Of a DNA stretch of 47,454 nt, positions 1-17,456 are shown piece by piece. The stretch is from a virus (lineage: Duplodnaviria; Heunggongvirae; Uroviricota; Caudoviricetes). The number at the start of each line of letters is the position of its first letter. The first letter of the stretch is position 1. A model generated the notes under the pieces. It had not been told where the DNA came from. It saw only the letters and a program-made list of their open reading frames with translations, and did no database searches. The stretch is taken from positions 83,348-130,801 of IMG/VR virus record IMGVR_UViG_3300033121_000823; one strand, given 5' to 3'. The translations under genes and the position numbers were made by a program.

Positions 1-327
1 TTGTTTTTGTCCAAAAAGAATATCACCTTCATCTACTTCATATTTTTTTATACGGTATCCTTCTTTAAAGAGGTCCAAAAGAACATCATTAAACCAATCC
101 TTCAACTGATTTAACGATGTAAAACCAAAACAAAAATTAGACTGTTCATCATCGGTTAAATTATCCCAAGCTTGAATATCAGCCCATGGAGGAGGAACAT
201 TATCTCTCCCTTTAGAGCGAACATGACTATTCATACGTAGCCAAAATTTGGCTGTTTGGTTAGGATTTCTATAAGGACCATATCCATTCTTATTCTCTAC
301 ACGGAATACTTTGAATTTTTGACCCAT
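1..327 (-). CDS. Conserved-looking phage hypothetical protein, 3' end outside window (109 codons visible)
   Basis: Not in ORF track because it has no stop in the window. ATG at 327 with GAGG 9 nt upstream; open to position 1: MGQKFKVFRVENKNGYGPY...PPPWAD...FCFGFTSLNQLKDWF...EGYRIKKYEV...FGQKQ. Overlaps the phosphoesterase 3' end by 38 nt. Confidence 0.75.
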   Translation of the reverse strand, partial: MGQKFKVFRVENKNGYGPYRNPNQTAKFWLRMNSHVRSKGRDNVPPPWADIQAWDNLTDDEQSNFCFGFTSLNQLKDWFNDVLLDLFKEGYRIKKYEVDEGDILFGQKQ

Positions 328-979
328 TGAGATAGACCTCATCTCCAGAGATTTCTACGTCAACATATGAAAGTTCTGCCAAGCAGATAAATAAAGTGTC
401 ATCATACTTAAACATTCTATTCCTATGATGATGACCAAAAATCCACAATTTTGGTTTGTGAACTTTAAAACATTCATCGAGAAGGATTTGGGTTGCAGAC
501 GTATAGTTTCTTGCAAAACCAAATTTTGGAAGTATATCTGAACTTGACACATATTCCACTACCCTTGATGGACAGTCATGACTAAGCATGACTAGAATCT
601 CATCTTTACACTGTTTGTAGGATTGTAGAATTTTTGACCCGTATTCAATGGCTGGTTCTTCGTCATTTAAAAAGGATTGTTTTCCACCAAGCAGAAAATC
701 TCTATATCTAAGTTCCCAGTCAATAGATTGGGCACCAGAGATATAATGGTATCCACGATGATTACCGAAAATATTTAAACAGTTAGAAGGAGAATGATAT
801 GGCGACCATTTCCAATTATCATGATTCCCCATAAAGAATTTATGGTTGTAATCTATTTCTCCAGCGTCAAAGACGCTGTAGTCATACGACATATCACCAA
901 TTTGTATACTTTCATCGCATTCGGCGATAATCTTCTTATACCCTTCGATTTTTCCGTGAACGTCACCAATAATACGCAT
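290..979 (-). CDS. Calcineurin-like metallophosphoesterase
   Basis: Motifs GDVHG, IGD, GNHDN, LSHD and FGHHH in the canonical order. Confidence 0.9.
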   Translation of the reverse strand: MRIIGDVHGKIEGYKKIIAECDESIQIGDMSYDYSVFDAGEIDYNHKFFMGNHDNWKWSPYHSPSNCLNIFGNHRGYHYISGAQSIDWELRYRDFLLGGKQSFLNDEEPAIEYGSKILQSYKQCKDEILVMLSHDCPSRVVEYVSSSDILPKFGFARNYTSATQILLDECFKVHKPKLWIFGHHHRNRMFKYDDTLFICLAELSYVDVEISGDEVYLNGSKIQSIPCRE

Positions 980-986
980 GATTCAC

Positions 987-1202
987 CTACAAATTGTTGA
1001 TGATTCTTTCTAATGAGAGAAGATTTAACGTCTGAGCATCTCTAACTAACGTGAATTCATATGAGACAATATCTAGCTCTTTTCCATTGATATGTCTATC
1101 CATGACAATTTTGAGAGATTTCATATCTCCATCACTATCAAGATAATATCTTTGGAAACCCTTGTAGCCCCACCTGTAGTAATAGACATATAAAATATAC
1201 AT
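987..1202 (-). CDS. Hypothetical protein (71 aa)
   Basis: Tightly packed, co-oriented with neighbours. Confidence 0.6.
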   Translation of the reverse strand: MYILYVYYYRWGYKGFQRYYLDSDGDMKSLKIVMDRHINGKELDIVSYEFTLVRDAQTLNLLSLERIINNL

Positions 1203-1204
1203 TT

Positions 1205-1516
1205 TTATACCTCAAAGCAAATTTTGTCCTGGAAAAACGAAGGAAGAACTTCCATACCAGCTGGGTCAACTACAATATTATGTGCTAACTTCTCGTAGAT
1301 AGAACTAATATTGTCTTCACCAACAATACGAAATTTAGCTCCAATCTTTACTGTTTCCAGTTTTTGCGGAACATAAACTGTTTTTTCATATATGTGGGTT
1401 ATGGGGAGGCCATTATCAGTTAAGGATACATCTTCCTTAACTTTTTGGCAAAGTAAACTTCCAATAGAAGAAAAATCTACAAACCAACTTCCCTTTGCAA
1501 TTTCAGAAAATTTCAC
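1205..1516 (-). CDS. Hypothetical protein with two tandem small beta-type repeats
   Basis: GTG start with AAGGA upstream; FSEIAKGSWFV...LCQKV resembles LETVKIGAKFR...IYEKL. Confidence 0.65.
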   Translation of the reverse strand: MKFSEIAKGSWFVDFSSIGSLLCQKVKEDVSLTDNGLPITHIYEKTVYVPQKLETVKIGAKFRIVGEDNISSIYEKLAHNIVVDPAGMEVLPSFFQDKICFEV

Positions 1517-1560
1517 AAAATATTCCTTATGAAGATGGTGCTTTTGCCGGTCGTGCCCCT

Positions 1561-1594
1561 ATTATACTAGGTATGACCCTACCAAGCAAGGGGG
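1561..1594 (-). promoter_or_regulatory. sigma70-type promoter, CCCC-TTG class
   Basis: Minus strand CCCCC-TTGCTT-17 nt-TATAAT. Confidence 0.75.
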
Positions 1595-1602
1595 TCTTTT
1601 TC

Positions 1603-2058
1603 TTACGAAGAAAAATCTAGGCAGACCATCTTATCTCCACGAAATCCAACATTTCCACTATGAATATCTTTTAACCATGCTGGCATATTTGAGCAAAACA
1701 TATCTCCTAATTTAGACTCAAAATCGCCCATAATACTGTATAGTTTTTCATATTCTGTCTTAAATAGTGGATGATGACGAATGAGCATAACATGCTCAAC
1801 GAGCACTCCAGTACATCGTTTTGAAGTGAAGGTATCATAAATAAATGTGCCATATCCATCTAGGGCGGCACGCTTATTTTCTTCAAATGAAAAGCTGGAA
1901 AGATTATAGTTAGGAAATACTTTTAAGCCAAATTTATCATTTAGCTTAAAATAACAACAATTAACTCCACTAGCCAATCCTACACACTCATGGTCAAAGT
2001 CTTCCGAATCCATACTGGATTCAATATTAGCAAGAATCTCTTTAATTTTATTTAGCAT
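1603..2058 (-). CDS. Minimal protein-kinase-like protein
   Basis: GLKVF (beta3 Lys), VLVEHV (hinge), KDIHSGNV (catalytic loop D-x-H-x-x-N), CLDFS (DFG-like); ends right after the DFG-like motif. Confidence 0.7.
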   Translation of the reverse strand: MLNKIKEILANIESSMDSEDFDHECVGLASGVNCCYFKLNDKFGLKVFPNYNLSSFSFEENKRAALDGYGTFIYDTFTSKRCTGVLVEHVMLIRHHPLFKTEYEKLYSIMGDFESKLGDMFCSNMPAWLKDIHSGNVGFRGDKMVCLDFSS

Positions 2059-2073
2059 GACCGCGCGAGCCTT

Positions 2074-2553
2074 TTAGTTTAGGTGATACGTATATGCCCT
2101 ATGCCTAATCAATCTAACTCTATCGGCCACGATACAAAGTCTATTATTAGACTCATAGTCAATAGCCAAAACATCCTTGTACTCTAGGATTGATATGTAA
2201 AATGTATCAGACTCGCGAATAATTCTTTCCCCATAATCTATAGCTCCTGCTAGATTATAGAATAGATGGAATCCTGAGATATAGTTAACACTGCTGTCAA
2301 AACTGTCAAGTATTCTTCTATTATACGCTTTTAACCATCTTGACTCGTGGAAGGAATCCATTCCACAATGGTATGATTTTTTACTTACTGGTAGAAAGAC
2401 TTTATATCCAATACCATAATCACGGATTAAGGATACTTTCTTCTTTTCTCTTTTTGTGAGAGGAATAATACCTTCTACCTTTCCAAAAAGATTATAATTC
2501 CCTTCCCAGGTAAGTTCATAATGTTTCCGCCAGATGATTTTAGATAAACACAT
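2074..2553 (-). CDS. Hypothetical protein (159 aa)
   Basis: Co-oriented ORF in the early block; no motif recognised. Confidence 0.7.
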   Translation of the reverse strand: MCLSKIIWRKHYELTWEGNYNLFGKVEGIIPLTKREKKKVSLIRDYGIGYKVFLPVSKKSYHCGMDSFHESRWLKAYNRRILDSFDSSVNYISGFHLFYNLAGAIDYGERIIRESDTFYISILEYKDVLAIDYESNNRLCIVADRVRLIRHRAYTYHLN

Positions 2554-3061
2554 AATTCTAGCTAATTCCTTTTTATTTAGGAATAATTCCCTTGGAAATT
2601 GGTAAGTTTTATATAGACTTCTTAACTTAAAAGGCTATATAGTGTAAGATTAAGAAGAAGGATAGGATATCCAATAAAAGAAAGAAAGTATATCCAAGTA
2701 AATATACAGGAAATCCTAATAAACGTAAGAAAGAACATAGAAAGAGACAGGGAAAGGATAGGAAAATGGAAAAATTGTTAGTTTTTTGCATTTTTTCACA
2801 TTTTTCTACCATTTTTTACACCATTATCCTCTCAAAAACACAAATTTTCAAAAAATTCCTCTAAAAACCTACATAGTCTCAGAAAAATTTTTAGAAAACT
2901 CGCCATTCCAATACCAAAAAGTACGTGAAAACGCACTAAGGGCGTAGTTTTAACCACTAACGCCCACTTTTCCAAAAAACAGCTTTTTCGAATGTATAGG
3001 CGGTTTTATTCTTTTTTCCCTAGGGGAGAATCAAAATTTTCAAAAATGATAAGGGAAGATT

Positions 3062-3268
3062 TTACGCCACTATTTCCTTAATCTTCCGTTGCAACTTCAA
3101 AGTTTCCTCCACATGTCCACTGGCAAACACACTTTCTTCATCCGTAAACGGATTGAATTCGCTCAAAACCCACTCATCTCCCTTCAAAGAAATTGAACAG
3201 AATCCACTATAGAAGTTTTCACCATCACGCTCAAATCCACACTTTTCCAATACTTCGTAGATGTCCAC
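3062..3268 (-). CDS. Hypothetical protein; start revised to GTG at 3268 (MDIYEVLEKCGF...)
   Basis: AAGGA lies 8 nt before GTG 3268, in frame with track ORF 3062..3331. Confidence 0.6.
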   Translation of the reverse strand: MDIYEVLEKCGFERDGENFYSGFCSISLKGDEWVLSEFNPFTDEESVFASGHVEETLKLQRKIKEIVA

Positions 3269-3281
3269 TTTAGTGTTCCTT

Positions 3282-3374
3282 CTATTCAGGAAAAGACATT
3301 TGCTGTTCTTCAAACTCACGCCAATATTCAATGGGCATTTTGCAGTGTTCTTCGGATATGGTGATAAGTTTCAT
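3282..3374 (-). CDS. Small acidic ORF (30 aa, MKLITISEEH...SFPE)
   Basis: AAGGA immediately upstream; its stop abuts the next SD; below track length cut-off. Confidence 0.4.
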   Translation of the reverse strand: MKLITISEEHCKMPIEYWREFEEQQMSFPE

Positions 3375-3449
3375 GTCCTTATTCCACCGCTTTGCCCACA
3401 CGCGGATTTTCATTTTCTTTAATCCGCTAACTTCTTTTGTGTGAAACAC

Positions 3450-3728
3450 TTACAGCCTCACAGCAATAGAAAATGAATCGCTTAGTATCATAACTTCAAA
3501 GCCAAGTTTTTCAAAATGACCTTTTACAGTATTAGGATTGTCACATATACTAACATAAATTCTAAATGTATCGGGTTTATGTTTTCCATCAAAATCTTCA
3601 ATAATTTGAGCAAATTTTTGCTCTACTTCTTGTTCAAGTTGCTTAAGTCGTTTTTCACGCTCTACAGCACTATTATACAAATGAATTTTGTTAATAGCCG
3701 CCATACGAATTTGTTCAGCAGTAATCAT
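3450..3728 (-). CDS. Hypothetical protein, distant member of the local paralog family
   Basis: MITAEQIR...HFEKLGFEV...IAV pattern resembles neighbours. Confidence 0.7.
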   Translation of the reverse strand: MITAEQIRMAAINKIHLYNSAVEREKRLKQLEQEVEQKFAQIIEDFDGKHKPDTFRIYVSICDNPNTVKGHFEKLGFEVMILSDSFSIAVRL

Positions 3729-3767
3729 ACATAATTCCTTACGTTGAAAGGACTTGCCACGCCCACC

Positions 3768-3800
3768 ATTGTACTATGTAGTGACCATCAAAACAAGGGG
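3768..3800 (-). promoter_or_regulatory. sigma70-type promoter, CCCC-TTG class
   Basis: CCCC-TTGTTT-17 nt-TACAAT. Confidence 0.7.
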
Positions 3801-3801
3801 T

Positions 3802-4113
3802 CTACTGGATACGCCCAACGTATCTTAGACGTACACCAATATAGAAAGTTGGGTATTCTTCATCAAAGTCAATATGATGGACATCTAAACATCTATGGTC
3901 GAAATATTCTTTTACACTATCAAATAATAGTTCTTTTGGCAACTCTATTCGTAAAAAGTATTCCTCCAGAGGAACTGTTCCATCATACCTTTCGGCCAAT
4001 CGGCACCACTTACCAATAACTTCCTTATAGAAATTTTCAAGACGAATTTTAGAACTGTTAACGTAAGTGTTTCTCTTACTTAACATCAATACTGCTAACT
4101 CGTTAGGTGTCAT
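3802..4113 (-). CDS. Hypothetical protein, paralog family
   Basis: LENFYKEVIGKW...YDG...VKEYF aligns by eye with 4153..4470 and 4796..5140. Confidence 0.75.
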   Translation of the reverse strand: MTPNELAVLMLSKRNTYVNSSKIRLENFYKEVIGKWCRLAERYDGTVPLEEYFLRIELPKELLFDSVKEYFDHRCLDVHHIDFDEEYPTFYIGVRLRYVGRIQ

Positions 4114-4152
4114 AGCTTCCTCAAATTAATAGGAAAAGAAATGTATGGGCGA

Positions 4153-4470
4153 CTACCGCGAAATATACACTTTCAAAAACCTGTAGAAATATTCATTCTC
4201 AAAATAATACATTACGATTCTAAATCCATACTTTTTCATGTAATCTACTACAACGTCAGCGATTAAATTACCACGTTCAACTTGAACAAACTCATTGTAT
4301 GGGTCTGTACTACCAGTGTAGTTTTCGAGCCGTTCATTCCACGCCTTAATAGTATTTTCGTGGAACGTGTTTAATTTTTCGGCGAGCAACCGATTTTCCT
4401 CTTCCTCTTCTTTTTTAAGATATTCTTTTCGGCGGGCGTTCATGACTTCTAAGATTGCAGAAGCTAACAT
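4153..4470 (-). CDS. Hypothetical protein, paralog family
   Basis: MLASAILE...FHENTIKAWN..LENY...YMKKYGF. Confidence 0.8.
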   Translation of the reverse strand: MLASAILEVMNARRKEYLKKEEEEENRLLAEKLNTFHENTIKAWNERLENYTGSTDPYNEFVQVERGNLIADVVVDYMKKYGFRIVMYYFENEYFYRFLKVYISR

Positions 4471-4480
4471 TTATTGTTCC

Positions 4481-4781
4481 TTATACCTTAAGATGTACGC
4501 GCAAATGACCTAGACGTTCATAGTCATCAGTTTCATACAGTTTACAGATAAAACCCCTGGCCAACATAAAGGCTTGAATCTTTTCTATACGTACGTCTGG
4601 ATGTTTAATGATGATATATTTCTTATCAACATCATTACTTCCATTCTTTTAGCACATCAGAATAGAACTTCTCTAGAATTGCGTTTTCAAGAATGCTCTG
4701 GTCCTTAGCCTTCTTTGTAAGAAAGTATGCCCTACGAGCAGTCATAATTTGTAGTATTTGTTCCGGCGAATACATCTTCAT
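4481..4781 (-). pseudogene. Frameshifted member of the paralog family
   Basis: ATG 4781 (GGAG SD) encodes MKMYSPEQIL...KFYSDVLKEWK and stops at 4635; the +1 frame continues NDVDKKYIII...FMLARGFIC...HLRVHLKV to TAA 4481, matching the paralogs' C-terminal half. Confidence 0.65.
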
Positions 4782-4795
4782 AGCTCCTTCAGTTT

Positions 4796-5140
4796 CTAGC
4801 TTGTCCAAATGTCAGAATTTTCAGTAGGTTTAGCAAGATATACATGAAGAAAGCTTGGTACATCAGACTCATGTACGACAAAACCATGTTGTGCCATATA
4901 CTTTTTTACTATTTCGATATCAACGCCAGGACTCCAAACTGAAACATATTGTTCGTGGGGTTCAAGTATACTATACCGATAATTTTCCAAAAACCGATTC
5001 CATGTAGCGATTGTATCTTCATGAAATTTTTTAAGTTTTCCAGGAATACAAATCTGTTCTGCTAGCTCTCTTTCTTTCTGCTCGGTAATATATTGCGAAT
5101 TTAAAGATTTGATGGATTCTAAAATTTGACTAGCTAGCAT
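4796..5140 (-). CDS. Hypothetical protein, paralog family
   Basis: MLASQILE...FHEDTIATWN..LENY...YMAQHGF...LHVYL. Confidence 0.8.
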   Translation of the reverse strand: MLASQILESIKSLNSQYITEQKERELAEQICIPGKLKKFHEDTIATWNRFLENYRYSILEPHEQYVSVWSPGVDIEIVKKYMAQHGFVVHESDVPSFLHVYLAKPTENSDIWTS

Positions 5141-5143
5141 ATA

Positions 5144-5317
5144 TTATTCCTTAGTTGGTAAATATTTATTAAGAAAAGTTTTCATTCGGCGGCGAGAACT
5201 TCTTTTGGCCGACTTATTTGTTTTACTTGTTCGGTAGAAGCAGCTACAGTCATATTTCTGACTACGACTAACTTCCAGCAGTTTCTTGAATTTTATCATA
5301 CTTACACAAATCTTCAT
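5144..5317 (-). CDS. Small basic ORF (57 aa)
   Basis: MKICVSMIKFKK...RRRMKTFLNKYLPTKE; stop abuts the next gene; SD weak. Confidence 0.4.
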   Translation of the reverse strand: MKICVSMIKFKKLLEVSRSQKYDCSCFYRTSKTNKSAKRSSRRRMKTFLNKYLPTKE

Positions 5318-5623
5318 GAGAGTTAAGAAGTTCTTTCCGCTAACCTCTTTATTTCAGTATAGACCAATCCCCTATACATAATAAAGACAGGCGAAGCAAG
5401 ACTTGAGTACTTAATAGATAGCTAACCCAGGAATAGAGAAAAAGCTAACAGTCGGCTGAAAATTTCTTAGTTCCTATAACTAGCTGACCTTAGCTAACAA
5501 ACCACATACACATTTTTTCTCTATTAAATATTGTCGTTTTAATCTTTGTAGATTCAACCTCGTAAGAGAACAACCCTCGATAGATAACTAACTGTTCCCG
5601 CCATCGCTTATGCTCCTATAAGA

Positions 5624-5652
5624 GACATACTCTGTTTTTGATGCCGCGTCAA
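5624..5652 (-). promoter_or_regulatory. Possible sigma70 promoter
   Basis: TTGACG-17 nt-TATGTC with AG before the -10, as in the other early promoters; -10 is weak. Confidence 0.45.
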
Positions 5653-5795
5653 CCCTTTTTGCGAAATACCTGGAAACTTTTCTAAAATAATTAGCTGACT
5701 GGCTAACTACCGCGACTTGGCCGACTTTTAACGGGTCTAGTTTAGCTAGAACAGATTCAGCAAAATATTTAATATCCGCATCCGTTGCGAAGCAA

Positions 5796-5830
5796 CGAAA
5801 AAGCCCAGACTATCTTGCGATAGCTGGGCT
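5796..5830 (-). terminator. Intrinsic terminator
   Basis: AGCCCAG-CTATC-GCAA-GATAG-T-CTGGGCT followed by TTTT. Confidence 0.75.
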
Positions 5831-5837
5831 AAAAAGT

Positions 5838-5897
5838 TTAGGAGCGACTTATCAAGAATCCTACCAAAATTCCTACGATTATCCCGCAAGTAGTCAT
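5838..5897 (-). CDS. 19-aa hydrophobic peptide MTTCGIIVGILVGFLISRS
   Basis: Strong SD (GAGGGGAG) 6 nt before ATG 5897; TAA 5838 directly before a terminator. Confidence 0.5.
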   Translation of the reverse strand: MTTCGIIVGILVGFLISRS

Positions 5898-5961
5898 CCA
5901 AAACTCCCCTCTAGGGAAAGGGGAGGGAATAACTCCCCCTCCCCACGTTGTTGAATGATTA

Positions 5962-6438
5962 CTAGACGTTAATCACGTTGTCATCATTTTCTGATTCTTG
6001 TGGAGTGTCCAAATCCCCCATTTGTGGAGCATCCAAATCGAAACTGAATTGCGAGACAATATCTGCGATGGCTGCCTTATTCTTTCCACGTCTGGCAGGA
6101 CTTGGCAATTGTTCGTCCAAGAACTTCTCGACTTTCTTTTCAAACGCCTTAAGGTCATCGGTCCGCTTGTGGAGCTGCCAATCCTCTAGGGTACGTCTAT
6201 GCTTTTCATACAAGCTTTTTGCCATTGCATTGCGAGTATTACTCACAAAGGTGGACAATCCTTGGCAGCCGCCCCGTTCGTCCACTTCATATGCAGTCCC
6301 CAATTCAGCATTGAGAATAATCGCAATCTGACCAATGGTTTTCCCGGCTGCTGTTTCGCGTTTCCAGATTGGAAGAAACGCATTAACATCGACAGACTTA
6401 CCCCGCGGTTTACGTGTTCGGTTCAAATTCATACACAA
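5962..6438 (-). CDS. Putative DNA-binding protein (HTH-like N-half, acidic tail)
   Basis: Basic N-terminus, AGKTIGQIAIILN (HTH-like pattern), acidic C-terminus; function inferred. Confidence 0.7.
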   Translation of the reverse strand: MCMNLNRTRKPRGKSVDVNAFLPIWKRETAAGKTIGQIAIILNAELGTAYEVDERGGCQGLSTFVSNTRNAMAKSLYEKHRRTLEDWQLHKRTDDLKAFEKKVEKFLDEQLPSPARRGKNKAAIADIVSQFSFDLDAPQMGDLDTPQESENDDNVINV

Positions 6439-6490
6439 TTCCCCTTACAAAGAAACTAAACAACTCTATCCAAAGCTAGCAACGTGCTAG

Positions 6491-6808
6491 CTATTTTACA
6501 CTGTAGTGAAAAGCAGACTCCCTTAACTTGTCGAGAATAATCTTATAAAAGATTACTCGACGTTCCGTTCTACTCAATCTTCGACCGTTTCGCCGAAAAT
6601 GTTTTCGTTGGGAAAACCTTACGATATTCCCATTTTCCATGACAATCCCAGTTTTTAGCTGGGACGCAATTCCATCTCGCAATTTTCGATGTTCAAAACT
6701 TTCTGCCTTAAAGGCAGGATAAGTGAACACGCGAACTGCTTTCCTTAATTCTTTTAGGACGTCACTTGTCGCAACAGTCCTTTGAACACTCTGTTGAGTA
6801 TCCATCAT
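6491..6808 (-). CDS. Basic hypothetical protein (105 aa)
   Basis: Directly downstream of tandem promoters; Arg/Lys-rich C-half. Confidence 0.7.
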   Translation of the reverse strand: MMDTQQSVQRTVATSDVLKELRKAVRVFTYPAFKAESFEHRKLRDGIASQLKTGIVMENGNIVRFSQRKHFRRNGRRLSRTERRVIFYKIILDKLRESAFHYSVK

Positions 6809-6817
6809 TATGTCCCC

Positions 6818-6920
6818 ATTGTACTAGCTACTTCCCATCGACGCAAGGGGTGTTTTTCATTCTCACAACCCCCGTTTCCATGCCCCTATTCTACTAGCTT
6901 GTTCCCTATCATGCAAGGGG
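6818..6920 (-). promoter_or_regulatory. Two tandem sigma70 promoters (70-bp duplication), CCCC-TTG class
   Basis: CCCC-TTGCAT-17-TAGAAT (6888-6920) and CCCC-TTGCGT-17-TACAAT (6818-6850). Confidence 0.75.
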
Positions 6921-6954
6921 TGTTTTTTATTCACCCCTAACCATTCCCCCCCTC

Positions 6955-7266
6955 ACAAGTGTATTTATACTATGTCCTTCCCGGTGAGGATACCCCCCAT
7001 CCGGCGGCGGGTCTGGATTGGCTGGTACAAAACCCTTTATTATACTTTCTACATTCCAATAAGTCAACACCCCCCGTCTGGCGACGGAAGTAGGTTAGCT
7101 AACTCGTTTTTTCATTTATTATACTATCTTGCTCCCTGGCTGGCTACCCCCCCATTTGGCGAAAGGACTATATTGGCTGAGTCAATCCCCTATTTGGCGA
7201 ATGGGTTAGGTTAGCTGTGACATAAATAGTCACCCAGAAACGTCCCACCGCCAATTACGGTAGGAC
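6955..7266 (-). repeat. Regulatory cassette A: hairpin, 4 x 38-bp unit, 3 promoters
   Basis: 13-mer boxes at 7018, 7095, 7173, 7211; -10/-35 pairs at 6964/6987, 7039/7062, 7118/7141, each 17-nt spaced; hairpin 7242-7266. Confidence 0.75.
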
Positions 7267-7282
7267 CAGACGACTTTAGAAA

Positions 7283-7471
7283 CTACTTGGCGTCATTCAA
7301 ATCGGCAAACAGTGTTTCACTGAAAAACTCTCGCCGTCTTGCAGCCAACACATCGGGCGGAATCATTGGTTGGCACTGTTCATGTTGGCCTTTGGTGCGA
7401 TATGATTCGCGACCAAAGGACGTACGGATATCCGGGATACCTGGAGCCACAAAAATTTGCGTAGCAGTCAT
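7283..7471 (-). CDS. Hypothetical protein (62 aa)
   Basis: GGAGG SD 6 nt before ATG. Confidence 0.7.
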   Translation of the reverse strand: MTATQIFVAPGIPDIRTSFGRESYRTKGQHEQCQPMIPPDVLAARRREFFSETLFADLNDAK

Positions 7472-7579
7472 GACAATCCTCCAAAGAACTAACCAAGATA
7501 TACTCGAAGTGAGTATAGCTAAGTAGATTCTTCGCGGACCTGCCCAACAGGATGGGCAGGTATGGTTTGACGGTGTGGA

Positions 7580-7837
7580 TTATCCTACCCAACTTATGCG
7601 GTATCGTCCATATTCACATGTTTCGTCAAGATTAATTAGGTCGAAATTGTCGACCCCTAATGCGAAAACTTTAAATCCTCCATTCTCAAGTCTTTTCCTC
7701 AATTCCTGATTTAGGATTACACCCGAGATACCAAACTCCCCCCTGTTGGCTGCCCTTGCAATCCTTTTCTTAATTTTGGAAAAAGAGTCCTGATTTCTCT
7801 TTTCAATCGCTCGACTCCTCGCTTTCGATGCATCCAT
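7580..7837 (-). CDS. Hypothetical protein; start revised to MDASKAR at 7837
   Basis: GAGGA SD 8 nt upstream; ASKAR...IKKRIARAANRG...LENGGFKV...RISW resembles a common small phage protein pattern and loosely the 3450..3728 gene. Confidence 0.7.
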   Translation of the reverse strand: MDASKARSRAIEKRNQDSFSKIKKRIARAANRGEFGISGVILNQELRKRLENGGFKVFALGVDNFDLINLDETCEYGRYRISWVG

Positions 7838-7868
7838 TGTACTATCCTCATCCCGAAAAAACAAGGGG
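7836..7868 (-). promoter_or_regulatory. sigma70-type promoter overlapping a translation start
   Basis: CCCC-TTGTTT-17-TACAAT; the -10 overlaps ATG 7837. Confidence 0.55.
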
Positions 7869-7905
7869 TAGTTTAGTCGTCCCATTGACTCCATTAACCG
7901 CCCTT

Positions 7906-8130
7906 ACAAGTGTATTTATACTATGTAGTTCCCTAGCTCGCTACCCCCCGTATGGTGAAAGGAGTAAGTTGGCTAACTCGTTTTTTCATTTATTATACTA
8001 TCTACCTACCTGACTAACAATGCTACCTTTGGCGAATGGGATGACTTGGCTGGGACAATAGCTCGTTTGGCGACGCAAGTAGGTTGGCTGAGCCAACAAA
8101 GAAACCCCGCTGGAGCGTCCTCCAACGGGG
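7906..8130 (-). repeat. Regulatory cassette B: terminator, 3 x 38-bp unit, 2 promoters
   Basis: Boxes at 7969, 8046, 8084; -10/-35 at 7915/7938 and 7992/8015; terminator 8097-8130. Confidence 0.75.
8097..8130 (-). terminator. Intrinsic terminator
   Basis: CCCCGTTGGAG-GACG-CTCCAGCGGGG followed by TTTCTTTT. Confidence 0.8.
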
Positions 8131-8481
8131 TGGGTCTTAATCTCGGACCATTGGTCGCCCACTCCAATGTGCCCATAGCCGATATTATTGGGCTACCACT
8201 CTTATCGGCGTGGAGTGGCAATCCCTTCAGTTGGGACCGTCGCGAATATACACTAATCTTCTCCTGACATCGTTGACTTGTATCAAACTCTCTGCTGGGA
8301 ACTTTTTTTTAGTTCATCGTTGATTGACTCGTTGCATAGCGGCGACTATGCATCCACTTGCCAAGTGGCGTTTACGGTTAATTCGAGTTTAGTCAATCTC
8401 TCGATGCGAGATAGAGTTTCGTCAGTTTGGGTTAGTCCCCCTAACCCTTCATCACTGTTCTCTATGATATTCTCCCTTACA
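8097..8481 (-). ncRNA. Candidate ~385-nt structured non-coding RNA, family not recognised
   Basis: Bounded by promoter (-10 at 8488-8493) and terminator; no credible ORF; about 11 stems read by eye plus a 7-bp loop-loop complement (8178-8184 with 8203-8209). Confidence 0.6.
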
Positions 8482-8487
8482 GGATTG

Positions 8488-8695
8488 ATTGTACTAACTA
8501 GGTCACTGGCTTGCTACCCCCCATATGGCGGCGGGTCTGGTTTGGCTGACTCAAAACTATTCATTATACTTGCTTGTTACCTAACTAACTATCCCCCATT
8601 TGCCGAATAGGTTAACTTGGCTAATACAATCACCCACTTGGCGAATGGGTTAGGTTAGGTAAGTCAACGAAGAGACCCCGATTTCTCGGGGTCTC
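8488..8695 (-). repeat. Regulatory cassette C: terminator-like hairpin, 3 x 38-bp unit, 2 promoters
   Basis: Boxes at 8542, 8617, 8655; -10/-35 at 8488/8511 and 8563/8586; 10-bp GAAA-loop hairpin 8672-8695. Confidence 0.75.
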
Positions 8696-8709
8696 AGTTG
8701 GTTCAGTTG

Positions 8710-8916
8710 CTACTTCACTTTCACAACCTTACCATCTTTCAACTCAACCTTGGCGTACCAAGTGTGAGGCTTCGGATAATGCGGTCCTCCGACCGCAGTT
8801 GTTCCGTTCTCGGGAACTGTCCCGAGTCCAGGGGCAAACACACTGACAGATTCTCCGGAAGAAACGGCCTCTTTTAGAGCCTTCTTTGTCTTGAAGTTTG
8901 GCGATACGTAGAACAT
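8710..8916 (-). CDS. Small hypothetical protein; start revised to MFYVSPNF at 8916
   Basis: GGAG SD before ATG 8916; KTKKALKEAV...GGPHYPKPHTWYA...KDGKVVKVK. Confidence 0.75.
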   Translation of the reverse strand: MFYVSPNFKTKKALKEAVSSGESVSVFAPGLGTVPENGTTAVGGPHYPKPHTWYAKVELKDGKVVKVK

Positions 8917-8986
8917 GTTTTGAACTCCAAAAACACCCATGAGAACCTGCCCCACATTGGGGCAGGCTATTTACCGACTTCCACTA

Positions 8987-9190
8987 CTACTTCTTGTCCT
9001 CCCATTCCTTAATGCCATACTGCTTCGCAGTCTGGGCAGTCGTGATTTTCTCCCACCCCGCCTCCGTTGGGGACATATTGCGACCGCACGCCAGACAACG
9101 CGTTCCGTTGCGTCTTGCCATCACTACCTTGGAAATCATACGGCGAGCACCACAATCGCACACATGCAGAATCGACAATCCCTTAGCCAT
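8987..9190 (-). CDS. Small zinc-ribbon protein; start revised to MAKGLS at 9190
   Basis: GGAG SD 8 nt upstream; CDCG...CLACG cysteine pairs. Confidence 0.7.
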   Translation of the reverse strand: MAKGLSILHVCDCGARRMISKVVMARRNGTRCLACGRNMSPTEAGWEKITTAQTAKQYGIKEWEDKK

Positions 9191-9233
9191 CGGAAAATCT
9201 CCAAACAAGTTAAAGTTTCTGACCACTGTGACC

Positions 9234-9363
9234 ATTGTACTTTCTACCTAACTAACTAACTACCCCCAGATTGGCGAAAGGGGTATATTGGGTGAGTCAA
9301 TCCCCCATTTGGTGAGGGGAGTAGGTTGGGTATGCCAACGAAAAAGCCCCGCTTTCGCGGGGC
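9234..9363 (-). repeat. Regulatory cassette D: terminator, 2 x 38-bp unit, 1 promoter
   Basis: Boxes at 9288, 9326; -10/-35 at 9234/9257; terminator GCCCCGC-GAAA-GCGGGGC-TTTTT at 9341-9363. Confidence 0.75.
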
Positions 9364-9372
9364 GAGTTTCTC

Positions 9373-9567
9373 TTAATATCCGATAATTCTATCGAAGATA
9401 AGAGGATAGAAAAAACTGTCTGCCCCGCAGACTAATTCCCCTGATTCCCTACCGTTTACATACGATAGAAAATCGTTATGTGGGATTCGTCGTAAGAACG
9501 CTCGTTCTTTTTTCTTTTCAATTTCAATCTCTTCCGCAATCATCCCAACTTGAAACCATGTCAACAT
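9373..9567 (-). CDS. Hypothetical protein; start revised to MLTWFQVG at 9567
   Basis: GGAGG SD; N-terminus nearly identical to 9982..10197. Confidence 0.7.
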   Translation of the reverse strand: MLTWFQVGMIAEEIEIEKKKERAFLRRIPHNDFLSYVNGRESGELVCGADSFFYPLIFDRIIGY

Positions 9568-9584
9568 ACTTCTACCTCCAAAGA

Positions 9585-9607
9585 GGGGCGAGCAAACCAC
9601 TCGCCCC
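9585..9607 (-). promoter_or_regulatory. Leader hairpin GGGGCGAG-TGGTTTG-CTCGCCCC
   Basis: Perfect 8-bp stem just upstream of the SD; near-copy at 9945-9967. Confidence 0.65.
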
Positions 9608-9621
9608 GAGTTCGTGAAACA

Positions 9622-9834
9622 CTACTTCCCGTTGAATCGGTCGGCCCATTTTTGGGCCGTTTGCCGTTTCTCGTCCATTGGTTCAGTTCCCTCCCATAAG
9701 AGGAAACACTTCAGCGGAACCCGTCGCATCTTTCGGTCGAGTCCGATAACCTCAAAACCGGGTTTCGGCTCATCCACTCGTTCAACCGTTGCCGTACCAA
9801 CTAGGAACTCTTTTCCTTCATACATTCCAACCAT
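9622..9834 (-). CDS. Hypothetical protein; start revised to MVGMYEG at 9834
   Basis: In frame with track ORF 9622..9900; follows the stop of the 28-aa ORF by 1 nt. Confidence 0.65.
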   Translation of the reverse strand: MVGMYEGKEFLVGTATVERVDEPKPGFEVIGLDRKMRRVPLKCFLLWEGTEPMDEKRQTAQKWADRFNGK

Positions 9835-9835
9835 C

Positions 9836-9922
9836 TTACTTTCCCCTATACAGAATCTCGAAGTAGACGCACGCACAAGCGTACGCCATAAACCCGCCAA
9901 GAAACCAAGCCAACCACTCCAT
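9836..9922 (-). CDS. 28-aa single-TM protein MEWLAWFLGGFMAYACACVYFEILYRGK
   Basis: AAGGA SD upstream; hydrophobic core with basic tail. Confidence 0.6.
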   Translation of the reverse strand: MEWLAWFLGGFMAYACACVYFEILYRGK

Positions 9923-9944
9923 TAGTATATTCCTTTATCCAAGA

Positions 9945-9967
9945 GGGGCGAGCGAACCACTCGCCCC
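9945..9967 (-). promoter_or_regulatory. Leader hairpin GGGGCGAG-TGGTTCG-CTCGCCCC
   Basis: Copy of the 9585-9607 hairpin. Confidence 0.65.
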
Positions 9968-9981
9968 AAGTTTCTTAACGA

Positions 9982-10197
9982 CTATTCACTCATGTTTACC
10001 TCGACTCTTATACACGCCTTCCAAATTGATTGCTTGCTCAAAGTATTCTGCGTACTGTCCTCCAAGTGTTCCATCATCATTTCTAGGCCAGCAAAGAACT
10101 CGACTGCCGCTTCCTTTGACGGGAAAGATGGAATTCCAAGATATTCACGCTCGACAATCGCTAGGGCAATTACCCCAGCTTGAAACCATGTAAACAT
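9982..10197 (-). CDS. Hypothetical protein (71 aa)
   Basis: MFTWFQAGVIA start; GGGGA SD. Confidence 0.7.
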   Translation of the reverse strand: MFTWFQAGVIALAIVEREYLGIPSFPSKEAAVEFFAGLEMMMEHLEDSTQNTLSKQSIWKACIRVEVNMSE

Positions 10198-10216
10198 GCT
10201 ATTGTCCCCTAAAAGT

Positions 10217-10265
10217 GGGGGGAAAGAACCATTTTCCCCCAGTTTCGTTTCGTCATGGTTCGACG
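10217..10265 (-). promoter_or_regulatory. Two-hairpin element with complementary 7-nt loops
   Basis: CGUC-GAACCAU-GACG then GGGGGAAA-AUGGUUC-UUUCCCCC on the minus strand. Confidence 0.55.
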
Positions 10266-10272
10266 TTTCCGA

Positions 10273-10737
10273 CTAGGATAGTCGGATAGTTTCCGTAAAC
10301 TCGCGAAGGAACCTTAGTTCCCCCGCTTCTGTGGGGGATTCGATAATCCCCTCTGTTTCGTCCGCTCCAACCTGATGGGTTATCGGGATTTTATCCCAGT
10401 CCCCATTGAATTGGGCGGCTAGACAATTTTGGGCTTTAGCCCAATTTGCTAGCTTATCCAAGTTGGGGGGAACTACCGTCCACCCTTTCGCCCCTTCTAC
10501 CCACAGAATGGAGCGAATAGCTTTGGCTAGTTCTAGCTCCCTTTCAAACTTCTCAGTCTGGTCGATACTTTTCTTGTGAGAGTTATTGTTAACCCATTCC
10601 GTTACATGAGTTTCGGCAGGGTCAACCTGAATAATTTTCCCATATAGGGGATGTTTTGAGATACGGCAGATAACCGTATCACCACCGTAAATTTCTCCAT
10701 ACCCCTTCTTGGGGACTTCCCTATAGCCTATCAACAT
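10273..10737 (-). CDS. Hypothetical protein (154 aa)
   Basis: Overlaps upstream gene by 7 nt; no motif recognised. Confidence 0.75.
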   Translation of the reverse strand: MLIGYREVPKKGYGEIYGGDTVICRISKHPLYGKIIQVDPAETHVTEWVNNNSHKKSIDQTEKFERELELAKAIRSILWVEGAKGWTVVPPNLDKLANWAKAQNCLAAQFNGDWDKIPITHQVGADETEGIIESPTEAGELRFLREFTETIRLS

Positions 10738-11066
10738 TCAAAACCTCCCTCCCCCAACTGGGGGACTTCTTGCTTCTCCCTCTTAGGGGCAGGAGATTTC
10801 CCCAACTTGTCGGGGGGAATAATATCCCCTAGACTTTCCACTACTTCCAGACTTCCGTTCATTCTGTCGAACCGATATGAACGGAATGTTACGCCACCCC
10901 TTCGGAGTGTACCTACGTCGATATATTGCTTACCGACATAGGAAACTTGCCCCTTTACGGGATAGGGATTAGATAGGACTATCCTATCCGTCCCATCCTT
11001 TTGGGGAAACGTACTTATCTTTTGATAAGTAAACTCTACCCATTCCCCTACGCTGGGGATTATCAT
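10731..11066 (-). CDS. Hypothetical protein (111 aa), first gene of the leftward block
   Basis: GGGG SD before ATG; beta-rich N-part, low-complexity C-tail. Confidence 0.7.
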   Translation of the reverse strand: MIIPSVGEWVEFTYQKISTFPQKDGTDRIVLSNPYPVKGQVSYVGKQYIDVGTLRRGGVTFRSYRFDRMNGSLEVVESLGDIIPPDKLGKSPAPKREKQEVPQLGEGGFEC

Positions 11067-11513
11067 GTCAATGCCCCTATCTGTTGATTGTGTACGCTAC
11101 TCGCCCATACTGTTCCCCTAGCCCATGTGTAAAGCTAGGGTAATGTGGCGAGTCTCAAGTTGTGAAAGAGCGAAGCGGGGCATTCTCTCGCCCCGCGTTC
11201 TGATTTTATCGGCGAGTCAACAGTTTGGAAATAGGGTATTTTCCAAGTTTCTTGTAACTTATTATCCCGCAATAGTTTACGTCGCGAGAATTCCGCAAAA
11301 ACGCCTAGACTGGACATTTGGTATTTAGTAATTCGTCCCATTAGTGTATCGCTAGTTCGGATGGGTTTATCCCCCCCATTCTATTTCCCCCGTTCGGGTG
11401 GGTTTACCCCCCAAAAAATGCCGGGGGTTCCATCAACAATACACGTATTTCATACATATTGTATCACCCAAACTACTCCTTTCATCAACCGTAACTCACG
11501 CCCCAACTTATGC

Positions 11514-13889: not shown

Positions 13890-14325
13890 GGAAAAGATAC
13901 CGTGGGACTTCACGCTTTACAGTGATGTTTCGGCGCAAAAAGTTAAATACATGAAGACTGGCGACTACACGGTTGAAGGTCACGAAAAATCAATATGTAT
14001 TGAAAGAAAGCGAACGACCGGCGAAATATCTTTAAACCTTGGTAGTAAATATAAGCAATTTAAGGATGAATTTGACCGTATGCAAGCCTTTGAACACCGT
14101 TTTGTAATATGTGAATTTCCACTATGGTTAATAATGGACTTCCCAAAGAATTCCGGCATTCCAAAGTTTAAGTGGAAGTATTTACGGGTAAATGGCAAGT
14201 TTCTATACAACCGCTTCATGGAACTATCTAACGAATATAATGTTCCCGTATGCTTTACAAATTCCTCGCTAGAAGCGCAAGACCTAGCAATAGCCCTAAT
14301 AAGAGATAGAGTATGTCCAACATAA
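13867..14325 (+). CDS. ERCC4/XPF-type PD-(D/E)XK nuclease
   Basis: TGDY...ICIERK motif followed by F.DE.DRM. Confidence 0.8.
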   Translation: MIILQDIKEKIPWDFTLYSDVSAQKVKYMKTGDYTVEGHEKSICIERKRTTGEISLNLGSKYKQFKDEFDRMQAFEHRFVICEFPLWLIMDFPKNSGIPKFKWKYLRVNGKFLYNRFMELSNEYNVPVCFTNSSLEAQDLAIALIRDRVCPT

Positions 14326-17300
14326 AGAAACGCCTTGAGGATGCGTGGTTAAATATTCCCGGCGAACTACAAGATTCAAAAATCTTCAATCCATTAGAGA
14401 CGATTCCGCCGTTCTTTGAAGAATCGCCGCACCTATACATTCTTTCCCTATTACAAAAACCCGAATACTTATGTTTCGCGGCCAGAGAAATACTTAATGT
14501 TAAGTTATTGCCAATCCAAGCGATGATGATGAGGGAAATGTGGACGCATAAATTTCCAATGCTGATTGCTAGTAGAGGTTTTGGCAAGTGCGAGAAAAAT
14601 TCTTACGTAGAAACTGAAAGCGGCTTCGTAAAAATAGATGATTTAGTTGGAAATATTCCAACGATGACACGTTTATATACGAATAATTTGAAGTTGCGTG
14701 GAATTAATGGATATCAGCCGGTTGAATATGTTTGGAAGAATAATAAGGAAGAATTAGTATGTATAGAAACTGAAGCTGGCTTCAAGAAGATATGTACTAA
14801 GAATCATCCTATAATGACTGTACAGAATGATAAAATAGATTGGCAAGATGCAGGTACTATCGTTGAAGGAGCATATATTCCGATAGTTAGAGATGATAAT
14901 TGGTTTCCAACTCACAATAATATAAATGAGGATTTAGCGTATTTATTTGGGGTTTTAGTCGGAGATGGCGGCTATACAGTTAGAGGAAAAATTACAATAA
15001 CAACAGAAGATTCTGAAATAATAAATAGATGTAATGAAATAGCATTAAAGTATTTTGGAAAAATTTTTAAAAGACAAAAAAGGAAAATATCATATTTATT
15101 GTGTAGTACTTCTATTTGGGATAGACTTTTCTCGGAATTTGGATTTAACAGTTTTGTATGTGCTGAAAAAAGCTTTCCAAAAACTATTCTTCATGCAAAG
15201 AAAAGTACAGTTGCAGCGTTTATTAGTGGTTTATTCGATACTGATGGATATACATCTAAAGATAAGAAATGGTTAGAGTATTGTTCTAAATCTGAAGACT
15301 TAGTAAAAACCTTACAATTTGTACTAACAAAGTTTGGTATTATTTCAAGAGTAAAAAGTCGTCTTAATAAGAAGTATAATAGAAGATACTATTATCTATA
15401 TATATTTGGAGATAATGTAAATATATTTTATGATAAGATAAATTTTAAACTTACTAAAAAAGTAAACAAATTAAAAAGTATATTAACTATAAAAAGTAAT
15501 ACAAATAAAGATATAATTCCGCGTGGATTGTTAAAAAATATTCCAAAGCGAGAATTTTCTAATAAAAAGAATATTACTTATAATATAGCTAAAAAGTATT
15601 CTGGTAATGAAGAGATTATAGCCAAGAATTACTACTATGATAAAGTAAAAAGAATTACTACTTTGGAAGATTATACATATGATGTGTATATTCCTAATGA
15701 CCATTCTTTTTATGCTGACGGCTTTATATCTCATAATAGCTTCACGCTTGCAGTATATTCTCTTCTACGAATGCTTCTACTTCCTGGTCGCCGTATAGTT
15801 ATCGCTGGTAGTGCTTTCCGTCAATCAAAAATCATCTTCAATTATATGGAAAATATATGGAGAAACGCACCTATACTTCGAGACTTATTTTCTGGCGATG
15901 AGTTTGCTGGTCCACGTAGAGAGCCAGATATGTATAGATTCCACCTAGGAGATAGTCTTACACAGGCGATTCCAGTTGGTGATGGTCAAACAATTAGAGG
16001 ATTACGTGCTAACGATATTATAGTTGATGAATTTGCATCAATCTCGCGTGAAGTCTACGAAGTAGTTATTCAAGGGTTCGCGGCCGTTAAGTCTGACCCA
16101 TTCTCCGGTGTTGAGTTTGAGGCGAAGAAAAAACTTTTGTTGGAACATGGAGAAAATCTAGATTCGCTAGACACTGAACAGAACCAAAACAATGAAAACC
16201 AAATTGTTATTTCTGGTACTGCTTTCTATGACTTTAATCACTTTGCCGAATACCACAAAAAATATCATAAAATAATTACTAGCCAAGGTGACATATCTAA
16301 GGTTTCCGAAGTAATGCAAGACTATGAAAAGGAGTCTGCGTTTGATTACAAACAATATAGTATAATGAGAATTCCATATGAGCTTATTCCAAAGGGCTTC
16401 ATGGATGAAGGTATTATATTGGCGGCCAAAGCTACTAGCAATACTGGTCTATTCAGTATGGAATATGGAGCCGTATTTAGTAAGGATTCTTATGGATTCT
16501 TTAAGCGCTCACTGATAGAAAGTTGTGTCGTTTCTCATGAAAATCCAATATCTATCAATGGAGAAGAAATAACATTTACAGCAAAAATGTATGGAGACCT
16601 TAATAAGAAATATATATATGGAATTGACGTAGCGTCCGAACAGGATAGATTTGCTATAGTTATTTTGGAGCTGCATCCCGAACATAGAAGAATAGTACAC
16701 GCATGGTCTACAAATAGAAAAGAGTTTAACCAAAAAGTTAAGGATAATCTTATTAAGGAAACTGACTATTATGGGTATTGCTCTAGAAAGATTCGTGAAT
16801 TAATGAAGCGGTTTCCATGTGAAAGAATCTTAATGGACTCTCAGGGTGGTGGTATTGGTGTTATGGAAGCATTACACGATAATGACAAACTACAAGAGCT
16901 TGAACATCCTATTTGGCCAGTAATTAATCCAGAAAAGCCTGCTGATACAGATGGAAAGCGTGGATTACATATATTGGAAATGGTTAACTTTGCTAGTAGC
17001 GAATGGACTTCCGAAGCTAATCACGGAATGAAGAAAGACTTTGAAGATAAAATATTGTTATTTCCATTCTTCGACTCTGTCGCAATAGAACTAGCAACAA
17101 TAGAAGATGGAAGAACTGGCAAACTATACGATACGTTTGAGGATTGCCTATTAGAAATTGAGGAGTTGAAAAACGAACTTTCCATAATAACTATTACTCG
17201 CTCCTCAAATGGAAGAGATAGATGGGATACTCCAGAAATTAAACTTCCAGGCAATAAGAAGGGTCGCCTACGTAAAGATAGATACTCGGCACTGTTGATG

Positions 17301-17456
17301 GCAAATATGGGCGCAAGAACCTTGCTACGTAAGCCTTATGTTAAGTATGCGATAGATGAAGGTGCTGGCGGATTCGCCGGTTCAACGAAAAGTAAGGGGG
17401 CAAAATATACTGGACCAGAATGGATTACTCAGTCTCTAAACGATTTATATAACTAA
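14313..17456 (+). CDS. terL: Terminase large subunit containing an intein (about 664 aa after splicing)
   Basis: Walker A SRGFGK|S split by intein, Walker B IIVDEF, RNase H-like nuclease YGIDVA ... DSQGGG ... KDRYSA. Confidence 0.92.
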   Translation: MSNIKKRLEDAWLNIPGELQDSKIFNPLETIPPFFEESPHLYILSLLQKPEYLCFAAREILNVKLLPIQAMMMREMWTHKFPMLIASRGFGKCEKNSYVETESGFVKIDDLVGNIPTMTRLYTNNLKLRGINGYQPVEYVWKNNKEELVCIETEAGFKKICTKNHPIMTVQNDKIDWQDAGTIVEGAYIPIVRDDNWFPTHNNINEDLAYLFGVLVGDGGYTVRGKITITTEDSEIINRCNEIALKYFGKIFKRQKRKISYLLCSTSIWDRLFSEFGFNSFVCAEKSFPKTILHAKKSTVAAFISGLFDTDGYTSKDKKWLEYCSKSEDLVKTLQFVLTKFGIISRVKSRLNKKYNRRYYYLYIFGDNVNIFYDKINFKLTKKVNKLKSILTIKSNTNKDIIPRGLLKNIPKREFSNKKNITYNIAKKYSGNEEIIAKNYYYDKVKRITTLEDYTYDVYIPNDHSFYADGFISHNSFTLAVYSLLRMLLLPGRRIVIAGSAFRQSKIIFNYMENIWRNAPILRDLFSGDEFAGPRREPDMYRFHLGDSLTQAIPVGDGQTIRGLRANDIIVDEFASISREVYEVVIQGFAAVKSDPFSGVEFEAKKKLLLEHGENLDSLDTEQNQNNENQIVISGTAFYDFNHFAEYHKKYHKIITSQGDISKVSEVMQDYEKESAFDYKQYSIMRIPYELIPKGFMDEGIILAAKATSNTGLFSMEYGAVFSKDSYGFFKRSLIESCVVSHENPISINGEEITFTAKMYGDLNKKYIYGIDVASEQDRFAIVILELHPEHRRIVHAWSTNRKEFNQKVKDNLIKETDYYGYCSRKIRELMKRFPCERILMDSQGGGIGVMEALHDNDKLQELEHPIWPVINPEKPADTDGKRGLHILEMVNFASSEWTSEANHGMKKDFEDKILLFPFFDSVAIELATIEDGRTGKLYDTFEDCLLEIEELKNELSIITITRSSNGRDRWDTPEIKLPGNKKGRLRKDRYSALLMANMGARTLLRKPYVKYAIDEGAGGFAGSTKSKGAKYTGPEWITQSLNDLYN
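14589..15737 (+). mobile_element. Intein with LAGLIDADG homing endonuclease (residues 93-475, 383 aa)
   Basis: Starts Cys after GFGK, ends ISHN before Ser; LFGVLVGDG and FISGLFDTDG blocks; visibly more AT-rich than flanks. Confidence 0.93.

Follow-up and report, generated by a model that had tools for sequence, protein, structure and literature searches.

Mobile regulatory cassettes termed PeSLs (promoter-early stem-loop) have been described in the T4-type phages RB49 and phi1 as carriers by which small orphan genes are shuffled (Arbiol et al. 2010, PMC2839356). In RB49 and phi1, recombination between flanking PeSLs excises or inserts an ORFan and leaves a single chimeric cassette behind (Arbiol et al. 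2010, PMC2839356). The locus described here, in a 47,454-nt stretch of DNA from an uncultured virus of the Caudoviricetes (hereafter the window), has the appearance of such a module, with an unusual payload: between two repeated cassettes lies a stretch of about 350 nt in which a conventional gene is missing. From its sequence, this stretch had been predicted to be a novel structured noncoding RNA (ncRNA) of about 385 nt with a 7-bp kissing loop and an expression cassette of its own. The analysis below supports the cassette and the missing gene, places the module among the accessory elements of the phage, and offers a different reading of the payload.

Genomic setting

The window makes up the final 47 kb of an IMG/VR virus record (IMGVR_UViG_3300033121_000823) of 130.8 kb, the completeness of which is estimated at 69%. 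Small genes on the minus strand fill positions 1–11,341 and are followed by larger plus-strand genes, among which is a match to a major head protein. A 1047-aa protein encoded at 14313–17456 (+) carries an intein with a LAGLIDADG domain. Directly past the major-head-protein gene lies a homing-endonuclease-like ORF of 528 aa (22645–24231, +), which has 26–28% identity to jumbo-phage and Campylobacter-phage ORFs, a few of these being annotated as homing endonucleases. Within the early (minus-strand) arm, the 105-aa ORF at 6491–6808 is clearly coding, given that its frame is kept in two siblings, that changes are mostly silent and that a 9-nt indel is in-frame.

A second type of promoter, CCCCTTG-N17-TACAAT, is found on the minus strand at 6810–6932, 7828–7880 and 9233–9240. 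Its −10 box overlaps or abuts an ATG (TACAATGG), which suggests leaderless mRNAs or mRNAs with a very short leader. One copy is located within the 104-aa gene, just 5′ of an internal ATG, so that this gene may yield two products.

Layout of the module

Four repeated cassettes, which share repeat families D1–D5, occupy positions 6950–9363. Their −10 boxes (TATAAT or TACAAT) align with each other, and the promoters of cassettes A and B match 10–11 of 12 positions in a consensus scan. Terminator-like hairpins are predicted at 8131–8104, 9363–9346 and 8695–8672, where each forms a cassette's left end. On the minus strand, taken in the 5′ to 3′ direction, the locus consists of an 81-aa gene, a terminator hairpin, cassette C, the ORF-less stretch (the cargo), a second terminator, cassette B and a 104-aa gene (Table 1). 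The product of the 81-aa gene has 1207 homologues, and 86 related loci were collected; the terminator that follows this gene (GAGACCCCG...CGGGGTCTC, then TTCGTTG) can be aligned with those of cassettes B and D.

Table 1. Features of the module and of related early-arm sequences (window coordinates)
Feature	Position	Strand	Basis or remark
Early-operon leader, non-coding, before the first early gene	11067–11440	−	Conserved in siblings
Upstream early gene, 81 aa	8710–8955	−	ORF; belongs to a widespread family of small phage proteins
Hairpin terminating the 81-aa gene; doubles as left end of cassette C	8665–8695 (hairpin 8695–8672)	−	Sequence reading
Cassette C: repeated operator-like boxes and two putative promoters	8482–8666	−	Repeat families D1–D5; four-cassette alignment
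Shine-Dalgarno-like AAGGGAG	8472–8478	−	Belongs to the right end of cassette C
Cargo body, ORF-less, hairpin-rich	8133–8481	−	About 350 nt; 385 nt including the terminator
Frame downstream of the Shine-Dalgarno site; candidate small ORF, fossil or unconventional	8346–8465	−	ATA 8465–8463, 39 open codons, TAG 8348–8346
5′ domain	8311–8465	−	Stems checked; present in minimum-energy and centroid folds
3′ domain with two alternative folds	8149–8237	−	Hairpins with complementary loops, or nested 8-bp and 7-bp helix
Intrinsic terminator, also the left end of cassette B	8097–8131	−	12-bp stem and T-rich tail
Cassette B, leading into the 104-aa gene	7901–8095	−	Repeats and cassette alignment
104-aa gene	7894–7580	−	3′ of cassette B

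The original prediction had two promoters pointing into the stretch, a strong terminator closing it and no Shine-Dalgarno-plus-ATG reading frame of useful length in between, and each of these sequence features is borne out on the minus strand. Cassette C has its −10 boxes at 8568–8563 (TATAAT) and 8493–8488 (TACAAT), with a predicted transcription start near 8481. Its −10 boxes are perfect or nearly so and its −35 hexamers match at only three of six positions, which is why these promoters are absent from the list produced by the consensus scan; they are putative, and are assigned by homology with the sister cassettes. The closing terminator has a stem of 12 pairs (8131–8104), eight of them G-C, a 4-nt loop and a T-rich tail. 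Minus-strand positions 8222–8698 contain no ATG, GTG or TTG frame of at least 20 aa, and neither does 8481–8133; canonical-start frames within the unit all fall short of 20 aa. A 110-aa frame on the plus strand was dismissed: it runs antisense to a repeated promoter cassette, its coding scores are negative, and a protein search with the plus-strand frame produced no candidate. The cargo is present as a single copy in the 130.8-kb record, and its composition is ordinary. The layout thus agrees with the proposal that the stretch is carried by a promoter/terminator cassette of its own on the early strand, and the cargo appears to be a real ORF-less early transcription unit, the probable payload of a PeSL-like mobile module.

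The Shine-Dalgarno site at the right end of cassette C has counterparts: in cassette B and in the sibling phage L163, the same motif (TGTAAGGG) stands 5′ of the 104-aa gene's start. In the form TGTAAGGGAG, common to cassettes B and C and to L163, it is followed by ATG in cassette B and by ATA, with no gene, in cassette C.

The module in sibling phages

Siblings of the phage were reached by following the flanking proteins to their homologues in assemblies from Logan and NCBI. The alignment with one of them, L163, which lies on a 184-kb contig and is about 81% identical in the flanks, runs from the 81-aa gene down to position 8470 of the window and then passes straight to cassette B and the neighbouring gene. 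Exactly where the window has cassette C, the cargo and cassette B, L163 has a single chimeric cassette. Its left half is 89% like the left half of cassette C vs 66% like that of cassette B, and its right half is 86% like the right half of cassette B vs 63% like that of cassette C, with the crossover near the first −10 box. Left and right halves are only 63–66% alike between neighbouring cassettes, compared with 86–89% for the matching halves in a sibling, which identifies the halves as orthologous, recombining units. It follows that the cargo, together with one cassette-equivalent, is an indel between close relatives. The comparison of these sequences shows the module to be accessory, and apparently dispensable in the closest available relative. 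Three other sibling contigs end in cassette C and one starts in cassette B; these contigs are uninformative as to the presence of the cargo, since assembly breaks at repeats would give the same pattern.

Searches for relatives of the cargo

The expectation that the stretch is not a recognised RNA is confirmed by the covariance models of Rfam 15, which have no match in the whole window at gathering thresholds. At a permissive setting (E<=10), region 8000–8600 gave only two chance-level matches, to unrelated families, and ARAGORN reported no tRNA or tmRNA. The cargo is unmatched by blastn in the INPHARED phage records; in IMG/VR, pseudo-protein scans with each half of the cargo brought up no relative and two motif scans gave 0 matches. 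Blastn, nhmmer and tblastx comparisons with about 175 fetched loci revealed no homologue of the cargo, and a covariance model of its 3′ domain, run against 1.1 Mb of related phage DNA, found only itself. The sole match of a single 20-mer scan of JGI metagenome contigs (locus L167) is attributed to chance, because only those 20 bases are common and they lie in seemingly bacterial coding sequence. Pseudo-protein scans of both halves also found no relative in 185,579 bacterial and archaeal species genomes; an RNA mimic derived from a host is therefore not supported. Translated frames used as bait in two protein collections, one of 1.84 billion representatives and one of 5.8 billion clusters, retrieved no homologue. 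Taken together, these searches go part of the way to placing the cargo outside any detectable RNA or protein family.

Likeness to the early-operon leader

The sole detectable relative of the cargo would be found in the same genome, in the leader that precedes the first early gene (Table 1). This leader is about 380 nt long and has a mean column identity of 88% in four phages (the window; L163:3540–3927; L164:1–361; L165:1–324). Some 25 nt upstream of its Shine-Dalgarno site is a long hairpin (ACUCGCCAC...GUGGGCGAGU) that is invariant, and two promoter-like sites are located in the region, at 11485–11458 and 11231–11203. A 68-aa ORF that can be read at 11341–11135 is probably not a gene, because an indel breaks it in a sibling.

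When a profile of the leader was run with nhmmer against the 130.8-kb genome, the cargo was the best match other than the leader itself, with an E-value of 0.06–0.12 per block. The second block lies at the same spacing in both sequences (263 vs 264 nt). Local alignment of the cargo with the leaders of siblings gave z-scores of 6.5–7.8, matched by none of 300 shuffles; with the phage's own leader, the z-score was only 2.5. Among 1740 tiles of the genome, tiles of the cargo had the highest scores outside the leader (50 and 46), the next score being 41, which is a small margin. The first shared block, around GGGGGACTAACCCAAACTGAC, consists of a G-run hairpin followed by CCCAAACU(G/A)AC; the second is a hairpin ending in GGAGTGGGCGA, with GGAGUGGGCGA at the end of its 3′ strand and a bulged G.

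The cargo is thus like the leader in its length, in its strand, in its position after a TACAAT-type promoter and in two collinear blocks. Unlike the cargo, which runs into a terminator, the leader runs into a Shine-Dalgarno site and the first early gene. The middle parts of the two cannot be aligned, global alignment gives 51% identity, and the covariance model of the cargo's 3′ domain misses the leader. The likeness is weak, then, yet it is the best in the genome and it is collinear. In our opinion, this moderate evidence makes it fairly probable that leader-type sequence gave rise to the cargo, as a diverged copy or as a patchwork. A different origin, as a decayed copy of the neighbouring 104-aa gene, was rejected: there is no similarity (z from −1.2 to 0.9), and the resemblance at the start is too short.

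Folding and the complementary loops

The stems of the original prediction stood up well. Twelve of its 14 pairings are exact reverse complements, and in each of the other two (ATCCC/GGGAC and TACCACTC/GAGTGGCA) one pair reads A-C on the plus strand and G-U on the minus strand, so that they form on the minus strand only. The 5′ domain comprises a long hairpin (8465–8411), a small hairpin (8411–8399) and a junction with two perfect hairpins, closed by 8398–8391 pairing with 8329–8322. Dinucleotide shuffles had been named as the yardstick for the fold, and the minus-strand core (8133–8481) folds better than shuffled sequence with a z-score of −3.1, or −5.1 when the terminator is included; the 5′ half (8310–8481) reaches −3.85. 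The plus strand gives −1.8 and −2.9. Perfect local hairpins of at least 6 bp number five in the cargo vs 0.62 expected, a count matched by none of 500 shuffles.

It should be noted that these values do not exceed the local genomic background. Two neighbouring ORFs, at 6491–6808 and 10273–10621 (both minus), fold with a z-score of −5.3 vs −3.1 for the core of the cargo, and the first of them, the 105-aa ORF, has six perfect hairpins of at least 6 bp vs 1.07 expected. (The second region is also given as 10273–10737, minus, among the early ORFs that fold at −5.3.) Perfect palindromes are enriched across the early arm, coding genes included. Hairpin richness is a trait of the whole early arm and no mark of an RNA gene. 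In this genome, fold z-scores and hairpin counts thus fail to separate RNA genes from coding genes.

The exact complementarity of the two loops (GCCGATA/TATCGGC) is real, whereas the kissing loop does not stand as separate evidence: the minimum-energy fold has these seven base pairs in a nested helix, with GCCGAUA/UAUCGGC inside an 8-bp outer helix. The nested fold of the 3′ domain has a predicted energy of −38.3 kcal/mol, compared with −29.7 kcal/mol for the hairpins as first proposed plus about −9.3 kcal/mol for a loop-loop duplex, so that the two folds come out about equal in the energy model. Only one motif, a 9-mer, is repeated inside the cargo. A K-turn or C/D-box (GUGAUGA...CUGA) was also looked for and discarded, there being no canonical stem beside the putative G-A pairs; the match to snoR35 had an E-value of 1.3.

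The frame behind the Shine-Dalgarno site

Six nucleotides downstream of the Shine-Dalgarno-like AAGGGAG, an ATA codon opens a frame of 39 codons that ends in TAG (Table 1). The codon log-odds score of this frame is 0.221, compared with 0.021 and −0.110 in the other two frames and with 0.07–0.22 for real small early genes. Such a value is attained by 3.4% of wrong-frame windows, 10% of stop-free ones and 75% of true coding windows. For the 20 codons past the TAG the score drops to −0.02; it is 0.138 for the last 50, and cassette C, which is non-coding, scores 0.150. Of the five stops met in this frame over the length of the cargo, three are TAG, and the genome encodes a tRNA with anticodon CUA (genome positions 82180–82252), a suppressor that could conceivably read them. 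No sign of AUA starts was seen elsewhere in the phage genome.

With phmmer, the 61-aa frame obtained by reading through the TAG returned six hits among 1.84 billion representatives, and those inspected (P0002, P0003 and P0005–P0007) are unrelated: the matches are to long, mostly repeat-bearing proteins and sum short motif matches such as LxLTVNATY. P0005 (327 aa) has a C-terminal Ribonuc_2-5A (KEN-like) domain and four tandem repeats of DELLSRADELKKLRLELERTWQL, which are 40–48% identical to residues 12–38 of the hypothetical frame. The possibility that P0005 is a relative was considered and judged a coincidence of motifs boosted by repetition. A gene gated by an amber codon was likewise considered and rejected, as the frame homologous to the start of the neighbouring gene reads GTG ATG AAG GGT TAG GGG GAC TAA, that is, six codons even with read-through.

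Part of the same region is shared with another cassette. Past their last promoter, cassettes A and C (6905–6950 and 8425–8481, minus) have in common a Shine-Dalgarno site, ATG or ATA, GGTTAGGGG and a hairpin. Cassette A has here a mini-frame of five codons (ATG GTT AGG GGT GAA TAA). The letters common to A and C are shifted by 4 nt between the cassettes, which indicates that what is conserved is the nucleotide sequence and not a peptide.

Discussion

What the cargo is can be argued in several ways. The original prediction held it to be a dedicated early ncRNA of about 385 nt, with hairpins, a three-way junction and a loop-loop contact, serving as a sponge, decoy, scaffold or ribozyme. Its cassette setting, the missing ORF and the missing family have all been upheld, and the RNA does fold better than shuffles, with the minus strand ahead of the plus strand, more perfect hairpins than expected, G-U pairs that are valid only on the transcribed strand and an exact 7-nt loop complement; possible paralogy with the conserved early leader would add to these arguments. 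The statistics are, however, matched or surpassed in two nearby ORFs, of which one is clearly coding, a nested helix equals the kissing loop in energy, and an RNA of this kind has neither an Rfam family nor a homologue in the collections searched and is missing from the closest relative. We therefore regard a dedicated structured ncRNA as unlikely, roughly one chance among four, and the effector role proposed for it is pure inference. A small protein gene, decayed or unconventional, of some 39 aa, or 61 aa if an amber suppressor reads the TAG, seems to us slightly less probable than that; this judgement covers jointly the ways in which its start might be explained, namely an ATG mutated to ATA, a rare AUA start, and a polymorphism or contig error. 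The ribosome-binding site and its 6-nt spacer, the gene-like score of the 39 open codons, the preponderance of TAG among the stops alongside a CUA-anticodon tRNA, and the fact that every other cassette of the row carries an ORF all speak for a gene. Against it are the missing ATG, GTG or TTG start, with no sign of AUA starts elsewhere in this phage, the purely unrelated repeat proteins returned by phmmer, and the codons past the TAG, which are not gene-like. Moreover, non-coding cassette C scores 0.150 in the same test, a 39-codon ORF would leave an untranslated tail of about 215 nt, and the part of the frame that resembles a sibling's leader meets a stop codon in that leader.

Least probable of all, in our estimation, and rather improbable in itself, is an element that acts at the DNA level, or a plain spacer, with palindromes that serve recombination, protein binding or replication and transcription that is incidental. 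Perfect Watson-Crick palindromes are the same on both strands and are enriched over the whole early arm, and the region is a recombination hotspot, as such an element would have it; the better fold of the minus strand with its strand-specific G-U pairs, the single repeated 9-mer and the unremarkable composition argue otherwise. The explanation to which we give most weight, while holding it at slightly under an even chance, is a non-coding payload, leader-derived or patchwork, that is functionless or acts as a decoy at most. Several observations stand against a gene-less payload of this kind: folding that beats shuffles and G-U pairs valid only on the transcribed strand would fit a selected RNA structure; the likeness to the leader is weak in E-value, in z-score against the phage's own leader and in tile margin; and the gene-like codon usage over 39 codons fits a former gene better than it does a copy of the leader. 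A combination of these ideas, in which the cargo is a functional early ncRNA of about 385 nt, a paralogue of the leader RNA moved as PeSL payload, is doubtful; we would put it at little more than one chance in five.

If the cargo is indeed a non-coding payload, it would be carried by a PeSL-type pair of cassettes (terminator, promoter and Shine-Dalgarno site) that belongs to the hyperplastic early arm in this large, T4-like phage, and would contain no working gene. Host RNA polymerase would start at the two cassette-C promoters, copy about 350 nt and stop at the 12-bp terminator, with early RNAs of roughly 385 and 460 nt as the result. RNA would thus be made, with selection on its structure not demonstrable. 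Should this RNA be active, its likeliest role would be that of a decoy for whatever binds the blocks shared with the leader. Recombination between flanking PeSLs leaves a footprint such as the chimeric cassette seen in L163.

PeSL-type machinery appears here in a very distant uncultured T4-like phage and with a payload without a gene. A dead payload would show how such modules decay and are lost. A functional RNA would mean that RNA genes, too, are moved by PeSL cassettes, and its link to the leader would then provide a concrete binding or decoy hypothesis; were it a leader paralogue, it would be the first RNA gene known as PeSL cargo and the founder of a leader-like RNA family in the T4-like clade.

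Comparison with known systems

The original prediction had likened the stretch to GOLLD and ROOL, large ornate ncRNAs associated with phages and bacteria that have reportedly been studied by cryo-EM. Members of these families are roughly 580–800 nt long. The comparison amounts to an analogy, as no covariance model matches the cargo. What they have in common is a phage-genome RNA (predicted in the present case) of unassigned role that is rich in hairpins and may form a loop-loop contact. Unlike GOLLD and ROOL, the unit described here is shorter, at 385 nt, and has no family and no covariation, and its loop-loop pairing is intramolecular and replaceable by a nested helix.

The comparison with PeSLs goes considerably further. 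As in RB49 and phi1, the cassettes are repeated intergenic sequences of about 100–250 bp in a hyperplastic early arm; they combine a stem-loop terminator, one or more sigma70-like promoters and, at the 3′ end, a Shine-Dalgarno site, all predicted here from sequence. Again as in those phages, they flank small accessory units, and in a close relative one chimeric cassette stands where this phage has two with the cargo between them. Unlike the PeSLs described so far, those of the present phage, a distant one from RB49, have additional operator-like boxes of 38 bp and up to three promoters, and the cargo between them is an ORF-less stretch of 350 nt instead of an ORFan. By this analogy, the flanking cassettes appear to act as PeSL regulatory cassettes do in T4-type phages.
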